Source of the DNA: a virus
Lineage: Duplodnaviria > Caudoviricetes
Strand: one strand, 5' to 3'
IMG/VR virus record: IMGVR_UViG_3300009435_000050
Coordinates: 1 to 24,731 of that record
DNA length: 24,731 nt
Below are positions 4,049-24,731 of the stretch, one piece after another. Every line of letters begins with the position of its first letter. The first letter of the stretch is position 1. A program made the position numbers and the translations under genes. The notes under the pieces are model-generated. The model was not told where the DNA came from. It searched no databases and saw only the letters and a program-made list of their open reading frames with translations.

Positions 4049-4065
4049 ATGCAGTAATTATACTG

Positions 4066-4073
4066 CAAATATA
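4066..4073 (-). promoter_or_regulatory. -7 promoter element TATATTTG
   Basis: TAnnTTTG immediately after the terminator U-tract, 17 nt before ATG 4048. Confidence 0.65.
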
Positions 4074-4074
4074 C

Positions 4075-4108
4075 AAAAAAAAGGGAGGATGCGCAAGCAA
4101 CCCCCCTT
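4075..4108 (-). terminator. Intrinsic terminator
   Basis: Minus strand AAGGGGGGTTGC-TTGC-GCATCCTCCCTT followed by a T-run. Confidence 0.8.
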
Positions 4109-6203: not shown

Positions 6204-6232
6204 TTGCAAATAGTATTAGTTATAACTAGATG

Positions 6233-6240
6233 CAAAGATA
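6233..6240 (-). promoter_or_regulatory. -7 promoter element TATCTTTG
   Basis: TAnnTTTG in the intergenic gap upstream of the fibre gene. Confidence 0.65.
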
Positions 6241-6247
6241 GGAAAAA

Positions 6248-6613
6248 TTAGTTAAAGTGTATCTTGCCTGAGAATTGCGCACGGACTATTAATTTGACTG
6301 TATTATCGTCAATGTATGTCACTTCGGGCTGAAGCACTTGATTAAAGGAGTCAACACAAGTAACTGCAGGTTTTTTATTCAATCCATGTACTAGAGTTAC
6401 CTCATGTTCATTTCCCACAGAAGTCCAAGCGTTTATGTTAAGTGCTAGTGTTTTGTGCTTGTCAGCAGCACCCTGTATTCCTGCAATAGACTGACGGTCT
6501 AGAACAGATACTTGATTAGGGTCGTTCTGCTGCACAGATACACTTTGAGTATTCTGAGTAGCCGTTACGGAGTTGCCCTTGCTAGGTACTGTGATGTTAG
6601 CTGTTATAGCCAC
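6248..6613 (-). CDS. Small virion structural protein (H.L...P.V...D domain; fibre adaptor-like)
   Basis: C-terminal VHGLNKKPAVTCVDS...EVTYIDDNTVKL...FSGK resembles the C-terminus of the 4134-6203 protein. Confidence 0.65.
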   Translation of the reverse strand: MAITANITVPSKGNSVTATQNTQSVSVQQNDPNQVSVLDRQSIAGIQGAADKHKTLALNINAWTSVGNEHEVTLVHGLNKKPAVTCVDSFNQVLQPEVTYIDDNTVKLIVRAQFSGKIHFN

Positions 6614-16482: not shown

Positions 16483-16770
16483 CTACTTACTGAATCTTTC
16501 AGCGAATCCACCACCAAAGTCTTTTTCTTCGTCTATAGTGCCTGTTTCTCTCGCGTTTTTTATCATTTGTTCTATATCCTGTCTAACAACTAACAGCTCC
16601 TTAGCATCCATTGCTGTTTGCTTTATTGAAGCTAGTTCCGCTTTACGAGCAGAGCCCGTGACCTCTTGGTCTACGGGCTTCTCTATTTCCTCTATCATAT
16701 TGTTGATTGCTTTCTCGGTAGCCCTAAGTAGGTTTTCCGCCGCTGTCAACGTGAAATTAAAATCAGACAT
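16483..16770 (-). CDS. Putative terminase small subunit
   Basis: Helical ~95 aa immediately upstream of terL, ending GGFAERFSK. Function inferred from position. Start may be 16779. Confidence 0.55.
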   Translation of the reverse strand: MSDFNFTLTAAENLLRATEKAINNMIEEIEKPVDQEVTGSARKAELASIKQTAMDAKELLVVRQDIEQMIKNARETGTIDEEKDFGGGFAERFSK

Positions 16771-17350
16771 AAGCTGCATGTATATAATTAGGCTTCATAC
16801 GGAATACTTGAGAGCCGTCGGGTAGGGTTATTCTGTAGTCGGCATTCTTACCGTACATAACAAGGTCTCCAACATTTACTCCTAGTTCTTCTGTTCCTGC
16901 GCTAGGGTATAGTACTACGGCCTCTTGCTTCGCTTCAACCAACTCAGTTCCTAAGAACAAGCCACCTGCGCTAACAACGTCGACCTCTTTGTCTTCTGTT
17001 GCTTCTAGGATAACCCAATCACCTAGAACGGTAACAGAATCATCCTCGTGTATAACCATGTAAGCCTGACCGTTAATCTCGGTAGGATGCCAAGCCACCA
17101 AGTAGTGGTCTTCTCCAATGCCGTATTTTTCGGGCTGTTGATTCACGTGGTGATGGAAGACTAAAGTATCCCCAACCTTAACTGACTCGGGTAAATCAGC
17201 CTTGGCGGGAATTGCTTTAATCGTACCATAAGATACACGCCCCTTGAAGTCATCCCAACGGGTGTCTTTTATAAGTTCAATCCCTGCTACTTCTAGAGTA
17301 TCTCCGAACAACTTAGGGACGTGCACTATGAAATCGTATAATGGTCTCAT
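16763..17350 (-). CDS. GroES-like co-chaperonin with two tandem GroES domains
   Basis: Domain 1 MRPLYDFIV...GTIKAIP...VKVGDTLVF; domain 2 LGDWVILE...SAGGLFL...AVV...VNVGDLVMY...DG..FRMK..I.A. Confidence 0.8.
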   Translation of the reverse strand: MRPLYDFIVHVPKLFGDTLEVAGIELIKDTRWDDFKGRVSYGTIKAIPAKADLPESVKVGDTLVFHHHVNQQPEKYGIGEDHYLVAWHPTEINGQAYMVIHEDDSVTVLGDWVILEATEDKEVDVVSAGGLFLGTELVEAKQEAVVLYPSAGTEELGVNVGDLVMYGKNADYRITLPDGSQVFRMKPNYIHAAYV

Positions 17351-17929: not shown

Positions 17930-17971
17930 TATTTCTGTATATTTAATTTAATTGGGTTTATACCCATAGTA

Positions 17972-17979
17972 CAAATATA
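17972..17979 (-). promoter_or_regulatory. -7 promoter element TATATTTG heading the packaging operon
   Basis: TAnnTTTG in the divergent intergenic region. Confidence 0.65.
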
Positions 17980-17988
17980 CAAAATAAA

Positions 17989-19066: not shown

Positions 19067-19228
19067 TTAAAAGCTATCCACAAAGGCTGCTACTACAGAC
19101 AGAGCTACTGCTGCAAACACCCCAAAGAATAACGCTGTAGGCAGGCTAGCGCTAACTAGTCCTGCTGTGACGGCTGAACAGGCGATGCCTTGACCGTACT
19201 TTTTCCCGAACTTTTTCATATATTCCAT
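19067..19228 (-). CDS. Small membrane protein (53 aa)
   Basis: Start reassigned to ATG 19228, 4 nt after TATCTTTA (19233-19240). The longer predicted start lies inside the terminator. Confidence 0.65.
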   Translation of the reverse strand: MEYMKKFGKKYGQGIACSAVTAGLVSASLPTALFFGVFAAVALSVVAAFVDSF

Positions 19229-19241
19229 GGTGTAAAGATAC

Positions 19242-19283
19242 AAAAAAAAAGAACCCATCACGACGGGGGGAAGTAATGGGCTC
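19242..19283 (-). terminator. Intrinsic terminator
   Basis: GAGCCCATTAC/GTGATGGGTTC 11-bp stem (two G-U pairs on the minus strand) followed by a long T-run. Confidence 0.8.
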
Positions 19284-19619: not shown

Positions 19620-19802
19620 CTACAATACTCTTTCTAACGCAAGGATAAGACCTTCTGCACCCGCAACAGCCATAAGAATGTATTTGGTGTAGTCGGCGCT
19701 CTTCGCCTTCTCCCCATCCTTATATCCCTGAAGCGCAGCTTCCGATTTTATCAGTTCCACTTCTAAATCAGTTATACGTTGTTGTAGCTTCTCCTTAGTC
19801 AT
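19620..19802 (-). CDS. Coiled-coil protein with C-terminal hydrophobic helix
   Basis: ATG 4 nt after TATCTTTG (19807-19814). Confidence 0.7.
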   Translation of the reverse strand: MTKEKLQQRITDLEVELIKSEAALQGYKDGEKAKSADYTKYILMAVAGAEGLILALERVL

Positions 19803-19806
19803 AGTA

Positions 19807-19814
19807 CAAAGATA
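19807..19814 (-). promoter_or_regulatory. -7 promoter element TATCTTTG (leaderless context)
   Basis: TAnnTTTG, 4 nt before ATG 19802. Confidence 0.7.
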
Positions 19815-19839
19815 AGCAATTAATACGAGTACACATAGG

Positions 19840-19874: not shown

Positions 19875-20797
19875 TACAATGAAGATAATTAGTAAAACAG
19901 CCTTATATTTAAAAAATATACCGTACCTTTGCCTCAGTATCATATTCGAGAGTGTGATTCATTTGTCTTTCTCACTCTTGTCTTCTTGTGTTGTTTTCCA
20001 AACACACACACTAATCTTCACAAATGTTTAGGGCTAGTTATATTCGTTACGCACTTGCGTCATCACCTCGTTGATAACAGCCTCTCATAGCACCTTATAA
20101 GAAGTGCTTTCTAACGTCCTATCGGACTGTCTCCCTTATCTACATATTACCATCTCTAGAAAGACGCTCTAACGCGCTCTCATGACACGTCACCCGTCTA
20201 TTGCAAAATGGAAAAAAGGTATCACTGCCTTCAGGTGTCAATTTAAAAAAGTTGTGAGAAATAAATATGGTGGGGATTATATATATACACACACGCTGCG
20301 ACACCGAAACGGAAATGGAATCCGAACCCCCCTCCCCACGACTGCTGATGATTGGGTCAAATACTTTTGGCTTTTTGGGTTCATGGTCTGCTGCACAATG
20401 CGCCCTAGGTTCTAAGCCTTGAATTGAGATGTAGTAAACACGGGGACTATCACGCCCCACCTAAATACAATTCTCTTATCTATCCTGCAACGGGGTTACC
20501 TATAGACTCGTTTAGTCTGTGAATGGGTACACGTTGTTAGTGCCTATGGTTAAAGGGCTTTGTGAATAACGTTCGTACATATACCATTCTAGGCGATGGC
20601 TTTTGGGGGCTCTTTGGCGTGCTTTGGCGTAACCATTCTACGGGGGCTGCAGGCCGATTGGTAGGCTCATTTGGGGGCGTTTTTGGATTGGCCCAAGATG
20701 ACATTTAATGAAATCTGACTTTTGAAAAAATCGGAGCGCTGTGCGCTAGTAATGGTGGGGGTTAAGGGGGATGGCTGTGAATAAGGTTCGGATAAAA

Positions 20798-20817
20798 GGG
20801 TAGGGTTGGGACAAGGG
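20798..20817 (+). other. G-quadruplex-forming motif GGGTAGGGTTGGGACAAGGG
   Basis: Four G3 tracts with loops of 2, 2 and 4 nt. Confidence 0.6.
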
Positions 20818-21093
20818 TAGCTGTATCCCTTGCTGTCACTAGGATTGATTAAAGGGTAGGCTTTGACAAGTAATTCCTAGGACATATCCAAACATTTTAT
20901 ACTCTTTTTTTCATGGTATAAATCACTCAATTGTGGTTATTAGTCTGTAGGTAATTTTACTCAGCGGGGAAAAACTTCATAGGTATTTTCGCTCATTTTG
21001 CATTTGAGGCAAAAAAACTCTGTATCCTAGGCTAGGCTTGGGCTAGAGGGCTCTCCTCGCGCGGGTATCAATAATAGCCGAGAAAGGGGGGTG

Positions 21094-21123
21094 TTGCAGG
21101 TATCGATAATGGTTGTACATTCG
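21094..21123 (+). promoter_or_regulatory. Probable Bacteroidota promoter for the ncRNA/early transcript
   Basis: TTG (21094-21096), 19 nt, TACATTCG (21116-21123); one mismatch to TAnnTTTG with canonical spacing. Confidence 0.5.
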
Positions 21124-21757
21124 GCTTGTCGAACGGGATGAGATATGAGACTCTTGGCGGAGCACATAAGAAGTATCTACCCGACCATCGAGGCCGAAAG
21201 GCTGACAAGCGCCAAACACATTAACAGCGCAGCCGATGTTGAGCAAGCTAACCTAGAGGAACCAACACCCGAGGGATTTAATAGCTGCGACCGACCAACC
21301 ACTCTTCCTCTACTAGGTATGGATGGAACACTGAGAGAGCCACACGGCTTTGCAACCTGCAGACTCAGTAAGTACAGCCTACCGAAAGACAAAGAGCCGA
21401 ACGGATAGAGCGCCTTGGCGCAGGATGCACAACGGAACACGATGAACAGAAAGCGAGCCGCAGCAATGCAGCGAGCAGTAGTAACCGCTAGTACAGATAC
21501 CGCAAGAATCCACAAGTAAGCCCTAGAAACAAGTACGATGCTGTGGTTGCTTTGCCCAAAGGATGATGCTGATTGTATCGATTGAGCATGTAGGATGCGC
21601 ACCAAGGTAGCGCCCCAAAAGACTACACAATCGAGTGCCCCGTAAGACATCAACCAAGTAGGCATTGACCCATTCCCGTGGGGCGCTGAGTGAGGCATTC
21701 GTTACGTAGAGTATGTATGCTGAGACTCACAGCAGGAGCGAGACCTGCCGCCCTACC
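21124..21757 (+). ncRNA. Candidate large structured ncRNA (ROOL/GOLLD-scale), family unassigned
   Basis: No credible ORF. Many nested helices with plus-strand G-U pairs, a GAAA tetraloop, complementary loops, and a 3' tRNA-like module. Confidence 0.6.
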
Positions 21758-21762
21758 TAACC

Positions 21763-21786
21763 CGAGCCAACCACGGCTCACAAATT
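21763..21786 (+). repeat. Leader hairpin motif copy 1 CGAGCCAACCACGGCTCACAAATT
   Basis: Ends 8 nt before ATG 21795. Confidence 0.85.
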
Positions 21787-21794
21787 GAATCGAA

Positions 21795-22127
21795 ATGACA
21801 AACGCTGAAAAATTAATCGCAAGCCTAAGCCCCGTAAACACTAACCTAGATGGCGCACCAATCGTGTGCTTAACGGCAGACCCGTACCTAGGTAAGTTCA
21901 TGGTTAAGCAGCAGTTCAAATTAAGCCTAGGGCAGCCCACAACGCTGACCACATTGCACGACCCCGAAAGCGGCAGACTAATCTTCACGGCACGTGATGA
22001 GGAAAGCCACGATGTTGCGCAGGGCGCTATGTCTAAGCTAGACTACGATTGCATGCGTAAATCGGAAGAGAACGCAAAACTAAGAACAGCATCGGTGGTG
22101 GCTCAATTGGGCTTTCTAGGTTGCTAA
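21795..22127 (+). CDS. Hypothetical early protein
   Basis: ATG with A-rich leader after the conserved motif; 110 aa. Confidence 0.75.
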   Translation: MTNAEKLIASLSPVNTNLDGAPIVCLTADPYLGKFMVKQQFKLSLGQPTTLTTLHDPESGRLIFTARDEESHDVAQGAMSKLDYDCMRKSEENAKLRTASVVAQLGFLGC

Positions 22128-22165
22128 TTACCCGTGCTTCCCATAGCGAGGCGGCACGTTATTTA

Positions 22166-22256
22166 AGTGAGGGCAGTGGTAGACTGAAACAAGGTCTGCG
22201 CCTAGGTCGTGCTAGGACTGCTCACTATTAATCGAGTCAACCACGACTCACAAATT
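22166..22256 (+). ncRNA. Structured cis-element copy 2 (three-way junction plus leader hairpin)
   Basis: P1 GCAGT/ACTGC, P2 GTAGAC/GTCTGC, P3 CCTAG/CTAGG, P4 GAGTC/GACTC; covaries with copy 3. Confidence 0.75.
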
Positions 22257-22264
22257 CAATCAAG

Positions 22265-22495
22265 ATGGCTAAAGTCACTAGAAGTACTGCAGGCGCTAAG
22301 TTCGTAAGCAGCAAGGAGAAGTTCAATGGTGCTCAGTTCGCTGAGTTCAACGTGAACGTTAAAGTAAGCAAGGGTCGTGCTGAGCGGTTAGCTATGAAAG
22401 CTAGACTAGCTGAGGCTAAGGCTGTCATGGCTTTGCCCGTTACCGCAGGATTCGTTGAAGTTAAGTCTAACCTACAATTCGCGTTCAGCGCCTAA
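22265..22495 (+). CDS. Small basic hypothetical early protein
   Basis: ATG 8 nt after motif copy 2; Ala/Lys-rich. Confidence 0.75.
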   Translation: MAKVTRSTAGAKFVSSKEKFNGAQFAEFNVNVKVSKGRAERLAMKARLAEAKAVMALPVTAGFVEVKSNLQFAFSA

Positions 22496-22496
22496 T

Positions 22497-22703
22497 ATGA
22501 CTACGAACGAGGATTACTTGTTTATGAACGACAACATAGGCAAGAGCGGTGTTATCACCGATGAGATAGGTACACTCGATGAGCACATAGGTTACAATGG
22601 TGAAGTGCTCACGATTGAGGATGTAGATGAGGATGGATTCTACATATTGAATGGCGGCCATTGGTGCGCTGATGATAACGAGTTTTTAATCTTAGAAAAG
22701 TAA
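22497..22703 (+). CDS. Small acidic protein, possibly SH3-like beta barrel
   Basis: Start reassigned to ATG 22497, 1 nt after the upstream stop; GEVLTIEDVDEDGFYIL..G.W..D.EF pattern. Confidence 0.7.
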   Translation: MTTNEDYLFMNDNIGKSGVITDEIGTLDEHIGYNGEVLTIEDVDEDGFYILNGGHWCADDNEFLILEK

Positions 22704-22706
22704 GCT

Positions 22707-22955
22707 ATGAAGAATGCTATAAAAGAAGTCATGTTCGACCTATTGGTGAACGGCTCAGTATCGGAAATGATGAAGACCATGCAGTTAGGCATGCAGCATG
22801 ATGATTACAACATCCGTTTCACAGCGCAGTTATGTGCTGATGAGGCAGATACAATCGAGGAAGAGGGCGCTATGGTTGCAGACTACCCTAATCTAGTTAC
22901 CAAGTGCGACTTGTATGCTGAAGTAGTAACATTAATCGTAGATAGCAAGTTATGA
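22707..22955 (+). CDS. Hypothetical early protein
   Basis: Tightly packed in operon. Confidence 0.7.
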   Translation: MKNAIKEVMFDLLVNGSVSEMMKTMQLGMQHDDYNIRFTAQLCADEADTIEEEGAMVADYPNLVTKCDLYAEVVTLIVDSKL

Positions 22956-23251
22956 AAAACGTGAGAGAATTTATCAACGCAGTGCTAGTTTGCACGATGG
23001 CTCTAGGCCTAGTCTGTTTCCTAAAATATGGTGACATCGAGTTCATATACATCGCACTAGGTTGTGGTAGTGTATTTGCGCTGTCAATCAAGCTAACCCC
23101 TAAGCCAAAGGTTGAAGAGCAGGTCATCCTGCAGGCCGTGCGCCATGGTGACGAGTTCTTCATCAAGAATGTAGTAACGGGTTCACTAAGGCCTAGCAGT
23201 CGCGCTGAGGTCAGCGACCTATGGTGCAAAGGACAAATCGAATTTAAGTAA
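22952..23251 (+). CDS. Membrane protein with two N-terminal TM helices
   Basis: ATGA overlap with the upstream gene; two hydrophobic segments. Confidence 0.7.
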   Translation: MKNVREFINAVLVCTMALGLVCFLKYGDIEFIYIALGCGSVFALSIKLTPKPKVEEQVILQAVRHGDEFFIKNVVTGSLRPSSRAEVSDLWCKGQIEFK

Positions 23252-23267
23252 TCTAAAACCCAACAAT

Positions 23268-23348
23268 ATGTTAGTATCAACCTTAATCATCTCAGTAGTA
23301 GCAAACGTTTCAATGTTAACGTATGCAGGCTACAAGGACGCTAAGTAA
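23268..23348 (+). CDS. 26-aa single-TM micropeptide (MLVSTLIISVVANVSMLTYAGYKDAK)
   Basis: A-rich leader; fills the gap before structured element copy 3. Confidence 0.55.
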   Translation: MLVSTLIISVVANVSMLTYAGYKDAK

Positions 23349-23355
23349 AAATCAA

Positions 23356-23441
23356 TCTCTATGGCTGACTGCAATAAGGTCAGCGCCTACATCGTGGTAG
23401 GGTAGAGACCTATTAACCGAGCCAACCACGGCTCACAAATT
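23356..23441 (+). ncRNA. Structured cis-element copy 3 (three-way junction plus leader hairpin)
   Basis: P1 TCTCTAT/GTAGAGA, P2 GCTGAC/GTCAGC, P3 CCTAC/GTAGG, P4 GAGCC/GGCTC. Confidence 0.75.
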
Positions 23442-23448
23442 TAATTTT

Positions 23449-24731
23449 ATGTCACGTTTTGTAGCAGATGTGTGGGGCGTAGTAGCGCTAGCACTAAATC
23501 AAAAAGATTCAAAGGTTCGCAACGTAGCGACTAAGTCTCAAATCCTATTCCGTACAGCAGGTATCAACCATGCAACCACGGGCAAGATGAGCACTAAGCA
23601 AGCCGTAGTGAAAATCAACGCACTAGTTCAAATGCATGTTGAGGCATTCAGCCTTGGTGGTGGCGATGAAGACTTAGAATGTGTTCACGTTATCGTAGCG
23701 TACAAGTCCGATACCGATACACTCATGGTGTACGGGAACAGCGATGATACGCTAGGCGGTAAGCGCTTCGAGGAACTAAACGAATACTCTAAGGGTAGCG
23801 AGAAGAGATTCGGCAAATGGTATTTCAACATGGGGCAATTTCAAGATGCCGTTGAGTACATGCTAGACGCATCGTCAGCGCCCGAATTAATAGAGGCAGA
23901 AACCACAAAAATTGAAACCATGGGACAGACACCACAAGAGTTAATGATGCAGGCCATGAGCATGATGCAGCAAGGCGGCTCGATAGATGAGGCTGCCGTT
24001 GAGAAGATTGTAGACAAGCGTATCAAGGCTCAGTCTGCGACTAAGGTTGAAGTAGTGACAGCTAAGGCGGTCAAGAAAGTAGACAAGGCTCACAAGAACT
24101 TTGCTGATGCTGTTGCGCTTGTAGGCCTAGGTAAGAATGTCACGCTGATTGGCGAGGCAGGAAGTGGTAAGTCTTTCGGGGCTATCCAAATGGCTCGAGC
24201 GCTAGACCAAGAGTACGCTGTTGTATCATGTCACGGCAAGATGCAGTCGTTTGATTTGGTGGGCGCTATGTCCCCTACAACGGGCGATTACATTAGCACT
24301 TCGCTACGTGATGCATACGAGAATGGTAAGGTGCTCATCCTCGATGAGTTTGACCGCTCTAACAACGAGACTACCATTGCACTCAACGGAATCTTAGCAG
24401 GCGATTGCTACGGCTTTCCCGATGGTATGGTGCAGCGCCATGCAGACTTCAAGGTCATCGCATGTCAAAACACTTTCGGCACGGGTACATCTAAGGTGTA
24501 CGGCTCAGCTAAGCCGCAGGATGGCTCAACGCTCACACGATTCACACGTGTTCTGTGGGATATCGACAGCAAGCTAGAGAAAGCTATATGTGGGGATACC
24601 GCTGCAACGAATGCTGTGCAGCGCATCCGCTCTAATGCTCAAGGCCTTGGATATGACCAAGTGCTTATCACGCCTCGCCAAGCGATTGATGCTAACCAAA
24701 TGGTAGACAGCCTAGGTTGGTCAGTCAAGAA
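23449..24731 (+). CDS. MoxR/CobS-like AAA+ ATPase with long N-terminal extension, 3' truncated by window
   Basis: Not in ORF track. Open from ATG 23449 (MSRFVADVWG). Walker A GEAGSGKS (24151-24174), Walker B VLILDEFD (from 24331), FPDG...H.DF.VIAC.NT.G.G, STLTRF, TPR. Confidence 0.9.
   Translation, partial: MSRFVADVWGVVALALNQKDSKVRNVATKSQILFRTAGINHATTGKMSTKQAVVKINALVQMHVEAFSLGGGDEDLECVHVIVAYKSDTDTLMVYGNSDDTLGGKRFEELNEYSKGSEKRFGKWYFNMGQFQDAVEYMLDASSAPELIEAETTKIETMGQTPQELMMQAMSMMQQGGSIDEAAVEKIVDKRIKAQSATKVEVVTAKAVKKVDKAHKNFADAVALVGLGKNVTLIGEAGSGKSFGAIQMARALDQEYAVVSCHGKMQSFDLVGAMSPTTGDYISTSLRDAYENGKVLILDEFDRSNNETTIALNGILAGDCYGFPDGMVQRHADFKVIACQNTFGTGTSKVYGSAKPQDGSTLTRFTRVLWDIDSKLEKAICGDTAATNAVQRIRSNAQGLGYDQVLITPRQAIDANQMVDSLGWSVK

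Follow-up and report, generated by a model that had tools for sequence, protein, structure and literature searches.

What are the structured elements that recur ahead of the early genes of this phage, and what might they do for it? The window analysed here, a 24,731-nt stretch of DNA (positions 1 to 24,731 of IMG/VR record IMGVR_UViG_3300009435_000050), is a phage fragment whose minus strand carries, by profile searches, the genes for portal, terminase and tail proteins; past a gene-free gap, the plus strand has small ORFs without an assigned family and a gene for a CobS-like ATPase. Its terminase is 39% identical to those of the Flavobacterium elemo phages, with Cellulophaga phages also matched, and its uncultured close relatives are complete at 62-66 kb. 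The terminase matches, the Bacteroidetes-type promoter predicted at 21094-21123, and A-rich start regions that lack a Shine-Dalgarno sequence together suggest that the host is flavobacterial. A first-pass annotation, made from the letters alone, had placed a repeated RNA element in early-gene leaders, and that setting is borne out: the elements lie upstream of early genes in a relative of Flavobacterium and Cellulophaga phages.

Related loci were gathered by protein and pattern searches in viral and metagenome collections, and two of them, apparently the window's own record, are excluded from every count. A blastn search of GenBank phages with the early region returned chance matches only, and relatives of the terminase were not found among GTDB genomes. 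The orthologue of the CobS-like ATPase in one relative (G002) has an AAA_5 domain. A GroES-like co-chaperonin gene adjoins the terminase (16763-17350), and elemo phages have one too. An A-rich motif recurs in late-region intergenic gaps (882-913, 4059-4082, 6219-6250, 17965-17988, 19219-19250 and 19800-19823; repeat families D7 and D9) and, read on the minus strand, resembles a late promoter. Next to a gene resembling that of the crassvirus muzzle, two relatives (L049 444-10205, L053 3188-13364) encode giant proteins on the minus strand (3253, 2126 and 1252 aa); these proteins gave no Pfam, PHROG or PDB match, show no DxDGD motif, and are probably ejected cargo. A sigma-70 region-4-like phage protein encoded upstream of a primase-helicase (L052 15620-16291) may drive late genes. 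Finally, a 68-codon gene of the window (22482-22706) is cleanly absent from a related strain (runs X1/X2), where 8 different letters occupy the joint and neither side has an element.

The early promoter was predicted from the Bacteroidetes consensus; similar boxes stand at an equal offset before 2 of 17 homologous leader starts under the strict pattern, and before 10 of 17 with the pattern widened after inspection. A sigma-70 promoter scan of the early region was uninformative. Directly after the predicted promoter begins a conserved non-coding leader, which ends at the first of the modules described below and has 16 distinct homologues of 436-553 nt. Its overall alifold energy is weak, and a 4-bp closure of its 5' and 3' ends and one covarying hairpin (21337-21350) are predicted from the 16 homologues; Rfam gave no match to the leader. 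In 9 of the 16 homologues the first bases fit GNCGAAN(0-1)G, a motif of Y RNAs, but a Ro60 gene was not found in four phage records. Contigs from four sequencing runs cover the region, one run being recorded as RNA, with scant cover, while the other three may be DNA; in one sample two contigs begin at 21225 and 21235, positions that do not count as evidence for a transcription start.

Class A, a covarying three-way junction

Two intergenic copies of the element (copies 2 and 3; Table 1) were found as first annotated, 1185 nt apart and aligning without gaps over 84 nt at 77% identity. All 18 core pairs hold in both copies, 16 of the 19 differences fall within stems, and double changes occur in all four helices (five in P1, one each in P2 and P3, and one more in P4, read directly from the sequence), much as had been claimed. 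The helix lengths needed one correction, P1 having 7 bp and not 5. P1 and P3 form a 12-bp stack, and the junction strands of 1, 1 and 0 nt leave two unpaired nucleotides in total. Loop 2 starts with U-G-N-R-A in 26/26 rows of our alignment A1, rows that were themselves selected by loop motifs, and UGNRA is missing from three class A variants. Loop 3, with 6 nt, is no canonical T loop. The pentaloop of the T loop is closed by U and A, according to the accessible text of PMC4810234, and the start of class A loop 2 fits this arrangement.

The 26 distinct class A copies of alignment A1 were picked for their loop motifs, without regard to pairing, and part of the loop conservation is therefore built in. 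Of its 580 stem cells 96.9% are paired, a level that none of 500 shuffles reaches, although the rows are related strains and the paired cells are therefore not independent events. Fifteen of the 23 pairs have changed on both sides. Doubly changed cells number 113, where shuffles give 39, slid controls are 29-39% paired, and RNAalifold, unaided, recovers the same three-way junction. The argument from G-U pairs for folding of the plus strand also survives, with 30 G-U against 6 A-C cells across the 26 homologues favouring that strand; folding z-scores against shuffles are -3.55 and -4.15 for copies 2 and 3 on the plus strand, and -2.01 and -2.06 on the minus strand. Rfam 15 covariance models, a check that the first-pass annotation had itself proposed, were run on the window, the 2.45-kb early stretch and eight related loci; the best scores lie far below the gathering threshold, and no family match is significant. 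Covariation in homologues and this Rfam result uphold the proposal of a structured plus-strand RNA absent from Rfam, and, judged from sequence, the class A fold is a real, uncatalogued RNA structure.

How far the family extends was approached with the class A model, which found 0 copies in stretches of an elemo phage, of MW202828 and of four loci with 59-62% terminase identity; among the sequences searched, the family thus looks confined to close relatives. The P4 pattern had 14 scattered matches in GTDB genomes, in unrelated taxa, which we judged from their titles to be chance.

Table 1. Early-region features of the window, in order of position
Feature	Position	Strand	Basis
Predicted Bacteroidetes-type host promoter, -33 TTG and -7 box	21094..21123	+	Sequence pattern
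Partly structured, conserved non-coding leader of about 550 nt, upstream of the first module	21127..21677	+	16 homologues
Copy 1, module of class D, with P1 of 8 bp, a long inner arm, a stem of 5 bp closed by a 7-nt loop (AGCGARA), and a C-C-U-A tail	21678..21759	+	Leader alignment
Copy 1 P4 hairpin, ACCA in loop	21764..21779	+	Repeat search, folding
First early ORF, 110 aa, no family match	21795..22127	+	Profile searches
Copy 2, class A three-way junction core	22171..22223	+	Folding, covariation
Copy 2 P1, 7 bp	22171-77/22217-23	+	Folding, covariation
Copy 2 P2, 6 bp, 9-nt loop	22179-99	+	Folding, covariation
Copy 2 P3, 5 bp, 6-nt loop	22201-16	+	Folding, covariation
Copy 2 N73-C-U-A tail, at the position of tRNA N-CCA	22224..22227	+	Leader alignment
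Copy 2 P4 hairpin	22234..22249	+	Covariation
A-rich start region without Shine-Dalgarno sequence, plus ATG of the 76-aa ORF	22250..22267	+	Leader statistics
76-aa ORF, first of four small genes in a run	22265-22495	+	ORF reading
Copy 3, class A three-way junction, helix lengths equal to copy 2	23356..23408	+	Folding, covariation
Copy 3 N73-C-U-A tail	23409..23412	+	Leader alignment
Copy 3 P4 hairpin	23419..23434	+	Alignment
CobS-like AAA ATPase gene behind copy 3, continuing past the window end	23449..24731	+	phrog_249, E 1.4e-38

Four folds in one slot, a ruler and a tail

A further correction to the first-pass annotation is a third copy in the window, which shares P4 (21764-21779) but carries a different 5' module (21678-21756). 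Anchoring leaders on P4 and the following ATG alone gave 73 distinct ones from the window and 29 loci, which belong to related strains and are not independent events; the strict P4 pattern had yielded 78 contexts, 19 of which were dismissed as chance by eye. The slot upstream of P4 and the start codon is filled in these leaders by four unrelated folds, classes A to D, which account for 29, 18, 10 and 14, respectively, of the 71 leaders that have a T-like loop. In class B, a minihelix of 42 nt, the T arm is that of a canonical tRNA, with an invariant G-UUCGA-N-U-C, and there is a D-loop-like GGU; 99.1% of its 216 stem cells are paired (a level reached in 0/500 shuffles), and 9 of its 12 pairs are doubly changed. 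Class C combines a short hairpin resembling a D arm with a loop of 8 nt that begins UUCAA, and 99.3% of its 150 stem cells are paired (again 0/500 shuffles). Class D ends in C-C-U-A in 14/14 leaders and has a G-1:C73 pair, as in tRNA-His. All classes, which range from 42 to 100 nt, are without an anticodon arm, and all present the 12-bp stack of acceptor and T-type stems seen in t-elements and RNase P substrates: 7+5 in A, 6+6 in B, 6+bulge+5 in C and 8+5 in D. The canonical 7-nt T loop is present in class B and in variant form in C and D, the class A loop being the 6-nt one. Orthologous genes, in families sorted crudely by their first residues, carry different classes (A 10/B 5; A 6/C 10/B 1; A 7/B 2).

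Modules also occur in other arrangements. One leader of relative G005 (L060 5200-5490, minus strand) has three tRNA-like modules in tandem, two of them with C-C-A-A tails, and ends in a P4 variant with a bare ACCA tetraloop. Class-B-like modules without P4 stand at L052 9061-9240, L048 6290-6420 and L056 9083-9135, followed by a conserved hairpin with a CACUAU loop and by more structure. ARAGORN, run on 49 related loci, called 1 tRNA gene, a class-B-like module miscalled as tRNA-Tyr.

What the four folds share is a distance. In tRNA, the geometry of T stem and acceptor strand places N-CCA after 12 nt. The T-like loop was found in 71 of the 73 P4-anchored leaders, and 12 nt after it begins an N-C-U-A tail in which C74 is kept in 71/71, U75 in 67/71 and A76 in 70/71, N73 being free. 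The distance from loop to P4, unlike this fixed ruler, ranges from 14 to 25 nt. In 26 leaders with a short spacer the anchor itself forces the U and A of the tail; in the 45 where it cannot force the tail, C74 is present in 45/45 and CUA in 41/45. Eight intergenic modules without P4 from four relatives, taken with no filter on the tail, have C74 in every case (three matches, within genes or on the opposite strand, were dropped from this set). We regard ruler and tail as the strongest evidence that class A, despite its 6-nt loop 3, may act as a mimic of the top half of tRNA; given that loop, the likeness rests on position and ruler and not on a T-loop match. The earlier structural reading holds as to a covarying RNA, but it overlooked the resemblance, in helix lengths and tail, to the acceptor/T-arm domain of tRNA.

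Downstream of the modules, the loop of P4 carries ACCA in 72/73 leaders (CCACG itself belonged to the anchor), more conservation than a mere insulator would need, and CCACG lies 23-25 nt upstream of the ATG in 59/70. Over 70 leaders the frequency of A is 0.73-0.86 at -11 to -13 and 0.77-0.81 at -6/-7, positions that match determinants of efficient initiation in F. johnsoniae as given in the accessible part of PMC6847099; the A-rich stretch is thus an ordinary host start signal. The pseudoknot or switch that had been suggested between loop 3 and P4 does not hold up, since 7 of 26 rows alter loop 3 with P4 unchanged and 2 of 26 are without P4. A resemblance of the 3' side of P4 to the T7 promoter was dropped, those bases covarying as a stem. 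At L133 924-1047 a perfect P4, a Shine-Dalgarno-like stretch and an ATG occur with no recognisable module upstream, either by chance or as a distant use of P4.

Proposed host processing and competing explanations

Overall, we place about even confidence in a reading in which the modules are anticodon-less tRNA mimics that host RNase P would cut, thereby punctuating and capping the early polycistron. Among the roles named by the first-pass annotation, that of a processing element is the best fit and is retained at this same even weight, now with the tRNA ruler and tail as its basis. No promoter-like pattern was found before the modules in 72 leaders (a search of low power, about 2 being expected by chance), and no U-tract follows P4 in 73, which suggests that one upstream host promoter would give a long early transcript running through all modules, which the RNase P of the host would cleave at the 5' base of every module. 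Cuts are predicted before 22171 in copy 2 and before 23356 in copy 3. The module would remain on the downstream mRNA as a paired, nuclease-resistant 5' cap, and each cut piece would run from a paired 5' end through P4 into the start region, which P4 would shield from upstream structure. Class A would adopt an elbow-like fold, and C74 would be kept for a pair with G293 of L15, U75 being able to wobble. The first cut may also set the long leader free as a large RNA in its own right.

The enzymes of the likely host class can be viewed through 41 genomes of the class of a Prevotella genome (Bacteroidia in GTDB). RNase P RNA is found in 40 of the 41, and GGU of L15 was read in 15 of 30 RNase P RNAs by a crude parse, the other 15 being unreadable; RNase Z is over the cut-off in 29/41. 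Bacterial RNase P cleaves acceptor plus T-arm hairpins and the phage M3 and C4 RNAs, as the accessible part of PMC11143913 reports, and, in that of PMC1874595, mutation of C74 lowers the rate of B. subtilis RNase P more than 100-fold while CCA-less precursors are still cleaved. Several points count against the RNase P reading: the tail is CUA and not CCA, class B has A at +1 where class D has U or G-1, the ACCA loop of P4 is kept more strictly than an insulating hairpin would call for, and the three modules in a row of G005 are more than punctuation alone needs. RNase Z could cut the modules at the 3' side instead. A fuller version of the RNase P reading is one that we hold only tentatively: the phage lineage would have at least four swappable, structurally unrelated mimics of the tRNA top half, class A being a new elbow fold in which UGNRA and 6-nt loops replace the D and T loops; host RNase P would read the non-CCA C-U-A tail and thereby determine the termini and the lifespan of early mRNAs, while a 550-nt non-coding RNA of the phage would be freed by the first cut.

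It is unlikely that the modules are excised on both sides, by RNase P and then by RNase Z or exonucleases, to act in trans as anticodon-less tRNA decoys for host toxins or enzymes directed at tRNA, with the mRNA beginning at the spacer and P4 serving as a 5' stabilising hairpin. C74, the main block to B. subtilis RNase Z, is invariant, most modules hold a fixed place upstream of a start codon, and a TROVE/Ro60 gene is present in 0/4 phage records; on the other side stand the tandem modules of G005, the modules without P4, the prevalence of RNase Z in the host class (29/41), its action after RNase P on CCA-less precursors (PMC1874595, accessible part), and the like processing of t-elements and of a YrlA RNA (accessible parts of PMC1920247 and PMC4201824). 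Rather improbable is an uncut translation enhancer of module and P4 combined, in which the tRNA-like elbow or the ACCA loop would bind the ribosome and raise initiation. The regular spacing of P4 CCACG (23-25 nt before the ATG in 59/70 leaders) would suit it, as would the disregard of Bacteroidia ribosomes for Shine-Dalgarno sequences and the ribosome's reading of the tRNA elbow (PMC4810234, accessible part), but the spacer between module and P4 varies from 14 to 25 nt, the A-rich stretch already fits an ordinary host start signal, some modules are not adjacent to a start codon, and a ruler to a CCA-like tail better suits an end-processing enzyme.

We attach a low probability to an uncut put-like cis antiterminator or exonuclease roadblock that protects or extends the early transcript. 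The elements are indeed repeated and covarying in an early operon behind a single promoter, but positions 20500-24731 contain 2 terminator-like sites against 3.8 expected, and four unrelated folds share the tRNA ruler only. In its 5'-exonuclease form the nuclease-blocking role proposed by the annotation finds no support, RNase J being over the cut-off in 0/41 host-class genomes; a block to 3' exonucleases is conceivable. Lower again is the standing of a signal at the level of DNA, whether hairpin promoters read by an N4-like phage polymerase or by a sigma factor of the phage, or sites at which recombination shuffles genes. A sigma-70 region-4-like protein and giant proteins without a family match are found in relatives, and modules are swapped between genes; yet the T-loop sequence, the G-U bias and the tRNA ruler are features of RNA, one early gene has been lost naturally with no element at the joints, the DxDGD motif is absent from two complete relatives, and three giant proteins have no PDB or PHROG match, although a very divergent polymerase is conceivable. 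Very improbable, finally, is a self-cleaving ribozyme or ligand-sensing riboswitch with a switch between loop 3 and P4, roles that the annotation had also entertained. A three-way junction with conserved loops, U-G-N-R-A opening loop 2 in 26/26 selected A1 rows, invites such an idea, but there are two junction nucleotides only, Rfam has no match, the pseudoknot is broken in 9/26 rows, three class A variants lack UGNRA, neither a terminator (no U-tract in 73 leaders) nor a Shine-Dalgarno platform is present, and ahead of orthologous genes the module gives way to three unrelated folds.

Known systems and the possible meaning of the modules

In logic, the closest analogue of the phage modules is the set of early RNase III sites of T7, repeated structures between early genes at which a host nuclease cuts the polycistron into mRNAs; the T7 sites are long bulged hairpins for RNase III, whereas the helices here, of 5-7 bp, copy tRNA geometry. 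Like the tRNA-like domain of tmRNA and like mascRNA, class B joins an acceptor stem to a T arm and to a D-like loop that lacks a stem, but it has neither a tag reading frame nor CCA. We rejected tmRNA identity because RF00023 scores 10-14 bits against a threshold of 47, on 17-nt matches to the T arm only, and ARAGORN finds no tmRNA; tRNA identity was likewise rejected, with no tRNA-clan match in the window and no anticodon arm in the modules. The HK022 put RNA gave no Rfam match to the element. Repeated signals also stand immediately upstream of small early genes' start codons in cluster K mycobacteriophages (SAS/ESAS) and in T4-type phages (PeSL cassettes); in those it is the sequence that is conserved, Shine-Dalgarno-like or promoter, whereas the modules keep their structure and tRNA geometry.

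Phage RNAs with a junction or a tRNA-like domain come closer. C4 antisense RNA (Rfam RF01695) has a three-stem junction. Together with phi80 M3 RNA, the C4 RNA of P1 and P7 is a phage RNA processed by host RNase P, according to the accessible part of PMC11143913. M3 and C4 are single-copy and trans-acting, whereas the modules repeat before successive genes and have no Rfam C4 match. YrlA and other bacterial and phage Y RNAs resemble the modules in having a tRNA-like domain and no anticodon arm, and RNase P cuts M. smegmatis YrlA, whose acceptor stem has 7 bp (both from the accessible text of PMC4201824). Y RNAs adjoin a Ro60 gene, whereas the modules lie in mRNA leaders and have no Rfam match; the Y RNA reading was rejected for the modules, a TROVE gene being found in 0/4 phage records, 3 of them complete. 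The t-elements of plant mitochondria, in the accessible part of PMC1920247, are likewise tRNA-like structures that are not tRNAs, lie at the boundaries of mRNA units and were put forward as signals that direct RNase P and RNase Z cleavage in cis; they are organellar and mostly decayed cloverleaves, whereas the phage modules comprise four anticodon-less folds of 42-100 nt under purifying selection, with a fixed CUA tail, a shared downstream hairpin and predicted cleavage.

No description of such an element was found in the literature searched, surveys of viral structured RNAs among it, which included few subscription papers. Six spellings of the motif had no match in the searched part of the supplements of PMC10690425, among whose 10,000 candidates the element may be. 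Comparison of sequences indicates an element family that is real and uncatalogued, while tRNA-like punctuation itself is already known from organelles.

If the fuller reading were true, mitochondrial-style tRNA punctuation would have evolved in a bacteriophage, and the phage would use the host's tRNA-maturation ribozyme as a general tool for processing mRNA, which until now has been described for organelles and for a handful of individual RNAs. In this context, four natural folds with one ruler and one tail provide a panel for the substrate needs of RNase P and RNase Z, including why the tail is C-U-A and not CCA. The modules are also parts of 42-53 nt that might insulate or stabilise mRNAs in Bacteroidota, where tuning by Shine-Dalgarno sequences fails.
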